27,572 nt of DNA from a virus (Duplodnaviria > Heunggongvirae > Uroviricota > Caudoviricetes): IMG/VR virus record IMGVR_UViG_2639762873_000006, positions 1 to 27,572 of that record; one strand, 5' to 3'. The notes beneath the pieces are model-generated. The model ran no database searches. It had not been told where the DNA came from and saw only the letters and a program-made list of their open reading frames with translations. Below, piece by piece: positions 19,569 through 23,500 of the stretch (position 1 is its first letter; every line of letters starts with the position of its first letter). Both the position numbers and the translations under genes were made by a program.

Positions 19569-20203
19569 TGGCACTTGATACAATCTCGACTAATGCAAAT
19601 CTACTAAAATATTGGAACTTAACCCGCAATAGTGGGACACCAAAAACTAAACTATCTGATCAAGAAATAATGAGTATGGGGCAACACGTAACATGCTTTG
19701 ATGTATTCCCAAAAAATGCAAATGGTATTCACTGGACTGATGCTTTTATTAATATCAATATGAATAGTGTAACCTATCTATCATTCCCTGATATTATTCA
19801 GGACTCACTACCAGCATTTAGCGAAGAAAAAGGAATTAGTAATAATGCCATCTCTTTTAAAGTAAGTAATATTGATAACTCAGTACAGATGCTTGCTCTC
19901 TCAGGTGGTCTATTCAAAGCTAAAATTAATATCTATATGGTAATCCTTGATCCCTATACTACTACACCACTCTATCAAATGTTGATGTTCTCTGGATTCA
20001 TTGACTACTGTCAGGCAGTAGCTAACCCAATTGATGGAAAAACAGAGATGACAGTAAACGTAAATAGTATATTCCAAAAACTAGACGTTCAGACACGTAC
20101 TATTGCAAGTAATAGCGTATATCAATCATATTACCCAGGCGATGAGTTTATGTCACTACTAGGACAGGTAAACCAAGCTAACCAAACATGGAAGATGAAC
20201 TAA
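19568..20203 (+). CDS. minor tail protein (lambda L-like)
   Basis: ATG 19568 overlaps the upstream stop (TAATG), GGAG RBS; position and weak similarity to the VSN...GG segment of lambda L. Confidence 0.45.
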   Translation: MALDTISTNANLLKYWNLTRNSGTPKTKLSDQEIMSMGQHVTCFDVFPKNANGIHWTDAFININMNSVTYLSFPDIIQDSLPAFSEEKGISNNAISFKVSNIDNSVQMLALSGGLFKAKINIYMVILDPYTTTPLYQMLMFSGFIDYCQAVANPIDGKTEMTVNVNSIFQKLDVQTRTIASNSVYQSYYPGDEFMSLLGQVNQANQTWKMN

Positions 20204-20595
20204 TGGCAAATTTACATAATGAAATAATGAAACATATTGAAGATGCACTAGCTAACCCTTATTCCTTCGGTACTAATGATTGTAATATTGTTGCCTTGCG
20301 AGTAGTGGATACTATTAAAGGTACTAACTGGTCCGAAGTAGCACAATATTCATCTTTAAAAGAAGGTGTAGCACAACTACACGAACTAGGATTTAACAGT
20401 ACACAAGATATCATCATTCAAGAGTGTACACAGGTTGAAATACCAATTGATGGCGATATTTGGCTAGATCCCGATAACCCCCTACTAATGGCGGTGGTGG
20501 TGTCTGGTCGCCTATTGGGTGTCAATGATGATCATGACGCTTTCGTACTAATCAATAAAAAGAAAAACGGAACTTACTATAGGAGTAACAAATAA
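20203..20595 (+). CDS. tail tip assembly protein, NlpC/P60-like domain only (K-like C-terminal half)
   Basis: 130 aa; GTNDC motif resembles the catalytic-Cys region of the lambda gpK C-terminal domain; no JAMM/MPN HxH motif is present. Confidence 0.4.
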
Positions 20596-23500
20596 TGGGT
20601 AGTGGTGGTGGAATATTTGGAGCACTAATTACCGCCGTAATGGTAGTAGCAGCAGTATATACGGGTGGTGCTACACTAGCAGTTGCGGCGATGTGGGGAG
20701 CGGCAGCAGGTGCACTATCCCTAGTTGCTACCAGTATGCTAGGACAAGTAGGAGGACTCACGGGATACTCCGATGTAGCAAGTGCATTACAGCGTTCTAC
20801 TAGTCCAACAAGTGGTTTACCTGTCATCTATGGCGGCAGTGCACCACATAAAAACGGCGTATCTGGTGGTAGCTTCATTCTAACTGGTGTTATCAATAAC
20901 TGGTATAATGTTAAAGATGATAGCTCGCAATATTTCTTTAGTGAGCAAGTAGTATCTATGACTGGTACGGCAAAGCACATAGAACAAATATACATGGACG
21001 ATGAACCAGTATTAGCAGTACCGATAACGTCAGACGGCGTAGTACCGAAAGCTAGTATTGTATCTAAATTCCAACCGTATCTACAATTAGAAATTAGATT
21101 TGGTGGTAATTATACAACTACGAAAACATTAGCAAAACAATATGCTGGGCCAAAGTGGACCGATAAATTTTTAGGGAAAGGTGTAGTATCTATTTCATCG
21201 GTAATCTATAAAACCGAAGATTCAACAATGGATGGTATCCTAACGAATGATAACTTCAATATGACCGTAGAGATGAAAGGACAAGAAATCTATGATTTTA
21301 ATAGTGGTACTACTTTTGCTACTTCTTGCCCTGCAAGTCAGATTTATGATTATCTCGTTAATACTACCTATGGTCTAGGACTAGAACCCGCGTTAATCAA
21401 TCAACAAACTTTTACGGAAGTTAGTCAATGGTGTTTCCAACAGGGATTAACATCGAATATTAGTATGTCTTATCAGTCAACATATAAAGAGAATATAGAA
21501 TCAATTCTACAGGCTTGCGGCGGTATACTTTATGTGCACGCGGGGCAAGTATGTATTACCGTAGACCGTAAAACTCTATCAGTACATACCTATGATGAAT
21601 CAAATATTATTGGTGATGCAAGCGTGTCTACTTCTGGTAATAATGACTACTATAATACGATTGATGCACAATATGTAAATACCAATTCAATGTATACTAC
21701 GGATGTATTGCGTATTCCTTCGGATATTAGTACGGATGAAGCGATTAAGAGTGATGGCCTAGTCATTACACTATCACGCGATTTTAAAGCCGTATACGAC
21801 GAAGAAGTAGTAGCACGACTAGTAAACGCCGAACTACGTAAAACTAAATTCAGTCTACGTACTGTAACCTTTACCAGTGCCGAAGCGTGGGATCTCAAAG
21901 TATGGGATAGTATCACTGTTAATATTAAGGAATTAATGGTAGCAGGTAAATTTAAGGTATTGAGTAAATCAGTTGCAACCGACCAACAAAACGTAGGCTT
22001 CTGTACTGTAACGTGTCTAGAATATCCTGATGCAATTTTCGATGGTACAGATCCGGGTGTATGGAGTCCGGGCGGTGTTATCGGTGGTGGGTCAGCACGT
22101 ATTGTACAACCTCCTACTAACCTAGTAATTACCCGTAAAGGTGATATTGTGTCTGGCTCAGTAGTCAATATGTCATGGTCTGCGTCACCTTCTAGTAATG
22201 TACGCGGTTACTATACCTACTATCGCAAAACAGGTACAACCAATTGGACCGCAGCAGGTCAGACAGTACCAACACAGTTAGAGTTTGATTTATACGGACT
22301 TGATCCAGATACAAACTATGACTTTTCAGTAGCCGCGTATAACATATTGGGTGGTGTATCAACTAAACTTATTGTTGGTAATCTAAAACCGGAATTTAAC
22401 TTTACATTACCCGCTGTAACTGGCGTTAAATTGAAAAATGCTACTTCCGGTCTATTAATTACAAATGAGACTGATTTTAATATTATATGGGATAACCAAC
22501 AAAATATTAAGGTTAATGGTCAGACGTTCCAACAGTATTTCAAACATTATACGATTAATATCTATGATGGTACGACACTGAAAGATACATATATTGCAAG
22601 TAGTAATGAGTTTAACTTTACCTTTGATTTGAACAAGTACAGCCTACGTAAACCAACTATTGGGATTATTGCTCAGGGGTGGATGTCGGGCACGTTCTCA
22701 CCAGAAGTTAAGATTACACCGGAAAACTTACAGTGTGGACTAGTACAGGGCGTTCAGGTTGGCGGCGGTTTTGGTAACTTGTTCGTTAGTTGGACTGAAT
22801 CAACCGAACCAGATTATGCTGGTGCACATATCGTTATGCGTACTGCTATTTCTACTAAATCATATATTAGTAATAAGCCAGAGTTTGACAGTGTACCAAA
22901 TATCACTGATGGAGATTACTTCGTTAAGATTGGTTTATTTGATAAGTTCGGTATGGATAATATCCAGTACAGCCCAGAAGTGAATATTACTATCAACTCC
23001 AAATATCAGTTTACACAAGCTGATGCAGACGAGATCAATAGTATTCTAGATCTAGATGACCGTTTGACTGATACACTAGACAAGGCCGTAGCCGACGCAG
23101 CAGCCAATACAGCGACGAAGATCACTCAATCCGAGACAAAGACTAACGCAGCGATTAAAGCCAGTGAGACGACGTTACAGACGCAAATCACGAACAATAA
23201 CTCGGCCCTAAGTCAGAAGATTAACGTAGTAGAAGCAACTGCAAATGGCAACACGGGCAAGATAACAACTCTAACACAAACAGTAGCAGATAACAATACC
23301 GCACAAACTACGGCAATTAACCAACTAAAAGCCAGTACGGATAGTCAATTTGCCAGTGTCAATACAGAGATGTCAGCTAAAGCTACTAAAGCAGAAGTTA
23401 ACGCCTCATATAGTCTTAGTGTCAATGCTAACGGTACTGTAGCTGGTTTCAAACTAATTGCTGGTGGTGCTACTAATACTAGTGCTATCTACTTTGCCGC

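Follow-up and report, generated by a model that had tools for sequence, protein, structure and literature searches.

A probable compact lambda/GTA-type tail-tip module, with a gpI-like start to its J-like protein, in a (pro)phage related to those of Enterobacteriaceae

The tail-tip genes and the start of the tip protein

The DNA analyzed here (the window) is the whole 27,572-nucleotide stretch of the IMG/VR virus record IMGVR_UViG_2639762873_000006, and it corresponds to the arm with the structural genes of a siphophage-type (pro)phage that has relatives among the prophages of the Enterobacteriaceae. Between positions 19014 and 23897, four genes follow each other on the plus strand and encode a distal tail protein (Dit), a hub protein in the position of lambda gpL, a small protein in the position of lambda gpK, and a large tip protein resembling lambda gpJ (Table 1). 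These genes are tightly packed through TAATG overlaps, with no space for an additional gene among them. Gene families were assigned by comparing the window proteins to Pfam, PHROG, and NCBIfam profiles. Based on the evidence below, we consider it probable that the four genes form a compact siphophage tail-tip module of the lambda/gene transfer agent (GTA) type, in which the small protein has an NlpC/P60 fold and the J-like tip protein starts with a segment resembling the C-terminal part of gpI. The first-pass annotation of this DNA had placed the K-like and tip genes correctly.

In the case of the tip gene, the start at 20595 overlaps the stop codon of the K-like gene in a TAATG (20593-20597), an AGGAG is found nine bases upstream, and an in-frame stop (20586-20588) lies two codons upstream. 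Because of this stop and of the TAATG overlap, the N-terminus of the tip protein cannot be extended, and there is no separate I gene between the K-like and the J-like genes. A 91-residue open reading frame (ORF) on the minus strand of the same region has no family match. The Gly/Ala codons that face it are GC-rich (52% GC, where the window as a whole has 39%), and we take it to be, in all likelihood, a shadow ORF.

Within the first 57 residues of the tip protein, Gly and Ala account for 46% of the sequence, compared to 16% in the remainder; no charged residue is found ahead of D60, and the 19-residue Kyte-Doolittle hydropathy reaches a maximum of about 2.0. This region had been proposed in the first-pass annotation to resemble the Gly/Ala-rich C-terminal part of lambda gpI rather than the N-terminus of J, and the proposal was borne out, as the segment is homologous to gpI 98-143. 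In fact, when alignments were built for the tip N-terminal family of the window and for gpI homologues, and then compared by hhalign, window residues 4-54 were matched to gpI 98-143 with a probability of 94.5% and an E-value of 7.8e-8. Since hydrophobic Gly/Ala-rich segments can score spuriously, we also performed 200 column shuffles, which yielded a null score of 12.1 +/- 3.1 and a maximum of 29.5, compared to the 43.6 observed. A hidden Markov model (HMM) of the gpI family, run over the six frames of the window, found its best match in the tip N-terminal segment (domain i-E 5e-4), and in the gpI homologue of PDB entry 9l9p, 14 of 26 residues (54%) are identical in register to the tip N-terminus (GGLFQVVLGAAIMVAAFYTGGASLAL, MVAAFYTGGASLA; BLASTP E 3e-6). 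The PHROG 31 profile, in addition, carries gpI 54-209 at its positions 132-276 and window residues 5-93 at 174-268, in a register that agrees with that of hhalign; judging from these matches, this J-family profile evidently includes I-J fusions. The Lambda_tail_I model (PF06805), with which the first-pass annotation would have checked the likeness to gpI, had no match to the J-like N-terminus at E<=10, yet this model covers only gpI residues 14-97, the ubiquitin-like (Ubl) domain, and is for this reason incapable of testing a claim on the C-terminal part of the protein.

The tip protein starts as MGSGGG|IFGAL, and its Gly5-Gly6 pair aligns with Gly100-Gly101 of gpI. This diglycine is the JAB cleavage point predicted by Iyer et al. 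in 2006 (PMC1779556), and the ordered gpI density in virions starts at about the same place (residue ~101) (PMC10721106, PMC11101478, PMC12617516). Further downstream, a relaxed alignment places GLPVIYGG...GSFILTGVI opposite gpI LPVLYGEMRVGSRVVSQEI. In the C-terminal plug and beta-strand region of gpI (~159-223) the motif reads LPVLYGEMRVGSR, to which the GLPVIYGG of the window is a weak match, and the more distant relative Escherichia phage DCP80 reads VLPLVYGEQRVGS where gpI has VLPVLYGEMRVGS. The N-terminal motif of lambda gpJ corresponds to the tip protein from about residue 110 onward (relaxed alignment against concatenated I and J), its hub core aligns by BLASTP with lambda J 250-369 / 276-412 (E 2e-4), and Phage_Tail_Tip (PF09327) is matched with an E-value of 1e-17 (64 bits, cut-off of 22). 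On the strength of these sequence comparisons, the tip protein is gpI-like (over gpI 98-143, and putatively through to residue 223) and gpJ-like in a single chain, with the gpJ-like portion corresponding to a central tail fibre with its hub core and C-terminal tip-fibre domain.

Alternatively, the Gly/Ala-rich N-terminus could be a generic hydrophobic, low-complexity membrane segment, similar to a signal anchor or a translocon hairpin, that resembles gpI by composition and not by descent, and that might still penetrate a membrane as was proposed for the iris of the megatron protein of the Rhodobacter capsulatus GTA (RcGTA). The same residues do match type III secretion translocon proteins weakly in Pfam/NCBIfam (SseC, E 0.004; PRK15374, E 0.0016), matches that we treated as compositional, and BLASTP of the window N-terminus against lambda gpI is marginal (E 0.01), while gpI was not reached by HMMER. 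However, the shuffles, although they keep the composition, score well below the observed value, the identity to the 9l9p homologue is in register, the second motif is collinear, and the position of the segment relative to the K-like and J genes is unchanged. A likeness due to composition alone is, in our opinion, rather improbable.

The protein in the position of gpK

For the K-like gene, the initiating ATG and the stop codon of the preceding gene overlap in a TAATG; with the alternative start at 20188 the protein would be five residues longer, and both starts are annotated among homologues. Residues 5-111 of the protein match the Pfam family DUF6950 (PF22262) with 34.7 bits, compared to a curated cut-off of 27. 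This family is carried by 27 of the 28 homologues that were found, and the protein also matches PHROG 2134. The initial description of this product as an NlpC/P60-like protein devoid of an MPN/JAMM domain was upheld by structure comparison. Its nearest neighbours among predicted viral structures come from other phages' DUF6950 proteins, NlpC/P60 endopeptidases come next, and Cys27, which belongs to an invariant G-x-N-D-C-N of the family, begins the helix at 27-39 as does the nucleophile in the NlpC/P60 fold. The models thus confirm an NlpC/P60 fold with a catalytic-type Cys at the N-terminus of a helix, and the 130-residue chain is a single domain with no match to Prok-JAB or any other JAB/MPN model in Pfam scans. 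The NlpC/P60 assignment holds for the fold and not for sequence profiles, as neither NLPC_P60 (PF00877) nor TIGR02219 (phage_NlpC_fam) was matched in Pfam/NCBIfam scans. Lambda K, in turn, weakly matches the families of the K-like protein (phrog_2134, E 0.005; DUF6950, E 0.07); BLASTP of the K-like protein against lambda K returned no alignment, and a profile search of PDB sequences with the K-like family and with the hub found nothing relevant.

Both hhalign and PHROG mapping put L95/M96 and G106 of the K-like protein at the canonical His positions. A MAFFT merge with seven GTA-type peptidases instead places the invariant H111 on the catalytic His; this residue is retained in DCP80, and not in Vibrio phage V6Aob. 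The DUF6950 protein, encoded in the gpK/g14 position, most likely helps to assemble the tail tip, and it may also travel in the tail lumen as a cell-wall peptidase. NCBI records of DUF6950 homologues (P0134, P0135, P0136, P0144, P0145, P0150, P0155) are often named "ornithine carbamoyltransferase", a label that is evidently a propagated mis-annotation in these tail proteins.

It could also be argued that the fusion is only apparent, and that the N-terminal ~70-105 residues of the tip protein are freed post-translationally, for example by the K-like cysteine peptidase, to leave a free gpI-C-like plug and a lambda-like J, in which case the DUF6950 protein would be a protease for processing or assembly, and no wall hydrolase. 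TAPK peptidase domains were indeed proposed to process TAPI (Iyer et al., PMC1779556), the L-x-R-x-T-S-P linker (residues 65-71) between the hydrophobic part and the strands is strongly conserved, and no canonical wall-hydrolase histidines are apparent next to an invariant C27. However, the equivalent domain is part of the intact megatron chain in RcGTA and in roseophage R4C (PMC7296036, PMC10276861), and packing inside the tip explains the conservation of the linker equally well. We regard this possibility as improbable.

Missing domains, relatives, and the other genes of the window

Neither a Ubl nor a JAB domain was detected in the window. A scan of the six frames of the 27.5-kb window with the gpI-family HMM revealed nothing Ubl-like, phmmer with the MPN part of lambda K found nothing in the same frames, and neither domain is present in the Pfam annotation of the +/-10 kb around the module in related prophages, a span that reaches the prophage end. 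A separate I/K pair elsewhere, the finding that would have spoken against the first-pass annotation, was therefore not seen in the window frames or in these flanks.

The hydrophobic segment has the same location throughout its family. In all 17 representatives recovered from the 1.84 billion searched, it starts at the first residues, and in every full-length case at residues 1-6 of proteins of 1000-2300 amino acids. In the E. coli prophage contigs, the gene order is kept, the small protein is 77% identical, and host genes are found a few kb beyond the lysozyme gene. The module is also present in phage DCP80 and in Vibrio phage V6Aob. Although lambda K/I "fusions" that resemble run-through artefacts do exist in databases (P0018, P0022, and others), the possibility that a separate small I-like gene was joined to J by a sequencing error, a frameshift or faulty assembly is effectively refuted, because the ORF is uninterrupted in independent genomes (eight full-length representatives, the 1100-residue genes of four E. 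coli prophage contigs, DCP80, and V6Aob), and no alternative frame encodes anything recognisable.

At the nucleotide level, megablast of positions 16000-25200 against 50,697 phage records returned no match, and the closest phage by protein is DCP80 (PQ671644), with 28% identity. In the DCP80 record, the Dit-like (186 amino acids, 4092-4652) and K-like (138 amino acids, 5448-5864) genes carry no annotation, and the phage is assigned to Straboviridae/Gaprivervirus despite the siphophage type of the tail-tip module in this region. In two of the E. coli prophages, L006 (1197-2431) and L007 (1166-2373), an insertion sequence (IS) element with an rve transposase breaks the tape measure gene, and another IS is found beyond the lysozyme gene; these interrupted copies are probably defective.

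The other genes of the window are listed in Table 1. In the capsid protein, a protease/scaffold-like N-terminal region is joined to the major head protein through a very acidic, Glu/Val/Pro-rich, repeat-like linker at about residues 180-250. Immediately upstream of the tube gene sits a second fusion, encoding an 1144-residue protein in which a full copy of the tail-tube fold is followed by a long tail fibre whose C-terminal chaperone region is of the S74 type. Residues 1-155 of this protein are 33% identical to the entire 152-residue major tail protein (BLASTP E 2e-21), both proteins match the same PHROG, and relatives in E. coli prophages have a shorter form of 846 residues. Downstream of the tip gene, small ORFs are followed by a lysozyme gene on the opposite strand. 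A 162-residue ORF occupies the position where related prophages (L004-L007) carry a gene of 174-307 amino acids for a SegE-type GIY-YIG homing endonuclease (PF19835), and may be a shortened copy of it. The 97-residue hydrophobic ORF at the end of the window has a counterpart in the related prophage L005 (17583-17876) with a weak Pfam match to GTA_holin_3TM, and is a probable holin, apart from the lysozyme gene.

Table 1. Genes and protein regions of the window (aa, amino acids; E-values refer to the profile or domain named)
Feature	Positions	Strand	Evidence or remark
Large terminase	5584-7497	+	
Portal	7999-9495	+	
Protease/major-capsid fusion, 632 aa	9407-11305	+	Overlaps the end of the portal gene
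Head closure protein	11319-11639	+	
Tube-domain/fibre fusion, 1144 aa	12047-15481	+	phrog_158
Major tail protein, 152 aa	15538-15996	+	phrog_158
Chaperone region	16064-16746	+	
Tape measure protein, 732 aa	16748-18946	+	phrog_13674, E 1e-75
Distal tail protein Dit, 184 aa	19014-19568	+	phrog_1302 "distal tail protein", E 8e-16; weak match to Pfam DTP-pb9 B-domain
Hub (gpL-position) protein, 216 aa	19553-20203	+	phrog_2048 "tail protein", E 9e-26
K-position protein, 130 aa (135 aa from ATG 20188)	20203-20595	+	DUF6950; single NlpC/P60-fold domain, without JAB/MPN
Shadow ORF (most likely), 91 aa	20552-20827	-	No family match
J-like central tail-tip protein, 1100 aa	20595-23897	+	phrog_31 "central tail fiber J", E 5e-53
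J-like residues 1-57: gpI-C-like hydrophobic Gly/Ala-rich segment (putative equivalent of gpI helices H1/H2)	20595-20765	+	
J-like residues 58-105: linker with conserved Y-x-D...L-x-R-x-T-S-P, then GLPVIYGG...SFILTGVI strands (putative equivalent of gpI plug and beta-strand C-terminus)	20766-20909	+	Family conservation; weak collinear hhalign; phrog_31 mapping
J-like residues 106-140: putative equivalent of the lambda gpJ N-terminal motif (…SEGPIEG…LNSTPVL)	20910-21014	+	Relaxed hhalign against concatenated lambda I+J; comparison with DCP80 and RcSwan N-termini; low confidence
Fibronectin type III domain, J-like residues 506-586	22110-22352	+	PF00041, E 3e-8
C-terminal central-fibre/tail-tip fibre region	23055-23897	+	phrog_496, E 5e-24 (residues 821-1098); PF09327; PDB sequence matches 9ze4_N, 9l9p_S, 7z4b
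Candidate shortened SegE-type homing-endonuclease copy, 162 aa	25895-26383	+	Position of the endonuclease gene in related prophages
Probable holin, 97 aa	27279-27572	+	Counterpart in a related prophage

Comparison with known tail tips and proposed function

The gene order and division of labour seen in the window are shared with RcGTA and roseophage R4C (g12 Dit, g13 hub, g14 peptidase, g15 megatron; PDB 6TEH, 8GTC), which also have a single-domain NlpC/P60-fold protein of about 130-150 amino acids without JAB, no separate gpI, and no Ubl. In these particles, the N-terminus of the megatron is a hydrophobic, glycine-rich iris or penetration domain that was proposed to close the tube and pierce the outer membrane, and the ~150-residue peptidase resides in the lumen (PMC7296036, PMC10276861). 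The order of hub, NlpC/P60 protein of ~140-160 residues, and large tip protein whose N-terminus is hydrophobic and Gly-rich was also confirmed for seven more GTA-type phages (of Rhodobacter, Roseobacter, Dinoroseobacter, Phaeobacter, Sphingobium, Caulobacter, and Acinetobacter). When the megatron was compared with gpI by hhalign, the IP-x-x-F/YG-x-MRV-G motif alone was matched (E 0.001, probability 21%). Unlike RcGTA and R4C, the window tip protein has lambda-like fibronectin type III and central-fibre regions, and the GTA TIM-barrel domain (GTA_TIM) had no Pfam match in it. The GTA-type peptidases, moreover, retain the canonical Cys-His-His motifs, whereas these are not visible in the DUF6950 protein. 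The hub of the window, which matches the baseplate hub N-terminal attachment domain (PF09931) with an E-value of 0.0016 and 19 bits, under the cut-off of 26, and is not a sequence member of PF09931/PF09356, contains two cysteines as counted from the translation, too few for a four-cysteine iron-sulfur cluster, and in this it differs from lambda gpL and from the hubs of RcGTA (g13) and R4C, in which such a cluster is seen.

With the L-K-I-J set of lambda, where gpI consists of Ubl and a C-terminal plug, and gpK of JAB and NlpC/P60 (PDB 8IYK, 8XCG, 9E7M), the window shares a homologous J core, the NlpC/P60 fold at the K position, and the resemblance to gpI, first to helices H1/H2 and then, more weakly, in an LPV-x-YG as found at gpI 189-194. 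The window differs in lacking both the gpI Ubl domain (PF06805) and the gpK JAB domain, in the covalent joining of the I-C part to J, and in a shorter linker between helices and strands (~22 residues, compared to ~36 in gpI). The parallel between RcGTA genes 13-14-15 and lambda L-K-I-J, with hub domains that are split differently among proteins in different phages, was already drawn by others (PMC10721106), and TAPI-TAPJ fusions as well as NlpC-only TAPK proteins were listed by Iyer, Burroughs and Aravind in 2006 (PMC1779556). In those fusions, the TAPI portion retains Ubl, whereas the window keeps only TAPI-C, starting at the diglycine where Ubl would end. A functional analogue is the plug of the baseplate hub protein pb3 of phage T5, an internal, hydrophobic, tube-closing element of a hub/tip protein that is thought to contact the outer membrane (PMC10721106, PMC10038345). 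This plug, however, is inserted into the HDII-insertion domain of a hub made of one chain and does not form an N-terminal segment, and no sequence similarity to the window was detected. The set described here is hence a divergent enterobacterial example of the RcGTA-type tail-tip layout, not a new system. What is distinctive is that its sequences are far from the GTA families, that it has a lambda-gpI-like hydrophobic segment and DUF6950 instead of a canonical NlpC/P60 protein, and that the tip protein starts at the diglycine. The first-pass annotation had concluded that the I/K system appears rearranged. This was correct in that J carries the C-terminal half of I as a fusion, but the Ubl/JAB pair is absent from the window rather than rearranged, and the layout is recurrent and was previously described (PMC7296036, PMC10721106, PMC1779556).

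We acknowledge that a number of results weigh against reading these genes as a lambda/GTA-type module whose tip protein has a gpI-C-like start. The beta-strand part of the tip protein is only weakly, though collinearly, similar to gpI (hhalign score 20.0, compared to a null of 10.4 +/- 2.5; probability 14%). A HMMER profile of the N-terminal 125 residues, searched against the 1.84 billion representatives, gave 17 matches, each the N-terminus of a large tip protein or a fragment, that include no free gpI-like protein and no bridge to gpI, and a profile of the N-terminal family found neither gpI nor the megatron among PDB sequences. Comparison of this family with the N-termini of GTA megatrons was not significant (hhalign E 0.073). 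Likewise, hhalign of the DUF6950 family with lambda K (E 0.39) and with the seven GTA-type peptidases (E 0.38) was not significant, so that the link between DUF6950 and these proteins is through fold comparison only. The canonical catalytic histidines of the K-like protein also appear, from the alignments, to have been replaced, which makes peptidase activity doubtful. Last, the AlphaFold2 model of J-like residues 1-500, obtained from a 10-sequence alignment, had a predicted local distance difference test (pLDDT) score of 39, too poor to check for gpI-like packing; its low-confidence secondary structure, with helices at 6-24 and 28-51 followed by strands, is merely compatible with our proposal.

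In the virions of lambda, the lumen of the tip contains a trimer of gpI (residues ~101/134-223) that is bound to gpJ and gpH; the beta-strands of this trimer are threaded through the gpJ hub domains, the tube is plugged, and the C-terminal helices of the tape measure protein are held. Binding to LamB opens the plug, and helices H1/H2, which are predicted to be transmembrane and were proposed to enter the outer membrane, vanish from the density (PMC10721106, PMC11101478, PMC12617516). It is from these solved lambda tails that we infer, for the tip protein of the window, a location in the lumen, a role as a plug, and an insertion into the membrane; enzymatic activity, if any, is putative. Residues 1-105 of the tip protein would thus be a built-in plug and penetration element, in which a short linker joins two uncharged hydrophobic helices (about 5-52) to beta-strands. 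The lumen of the tip would contain this segment in three copies that run through the hub domains of J, seal the tube, and retain the tape measure protein by its C-terminus, which is the expected plug partner by analogy with the gpH-gpI contacts of lambda (PMC10721106, PMC12617516). Upon receptor binding, the tip would open, and the hydrophobic helices could drop out and enter the outer membrane first, before the tape measure protein and the DNA follow. Due to the covalent link to J, three copies would be built in automatically and their stoichiometry fixed. A fused segment, furthermore, would need neither the Ubl carrier that forms the N-terminus of gpI nor the JAB peptidase at the N-terminus of gpK to remove this carrier, which fits the absence of both domains from the window. 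Within the module, the DUF6950 protein would act as the assembly factor, and perhaps as a wall peptidase.

One could go further and propose that this lineage is a natural "pre-processed" form of the lambda I/K system, in which the tip protein begins at the very diglycine where JAB, predicted to cleave Ubl from TAPI at its C-terminal glycine (PMC1779556), would cut Ubl off gpI. We consider this unlikely, albeit possible. If true, the joint loss of Ubl and JAB would be direct comparative evidence that the Ubl of lambda is a removable assembly carrier and JAB its dedicated protease, and the DUF6950 protein would serve in assembly or in the processing of the tip protein, and not as a wall hydrolase.

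Our analysis provides correct names for four poorly annotated genes, and extends a known pattern while leaving the current understanding of these tails unchanged. An enterobacterial prophage lineage is seen to combine the compact RcGTA-style tip layout with a lambda-gpI-like membrane segment, and this combination offers a comparative test for the roles of the gpI Ubl and gpK JAB domains of lambda, and for the hydrophobic helices of gpI as the element that penetrates the outer membrane.

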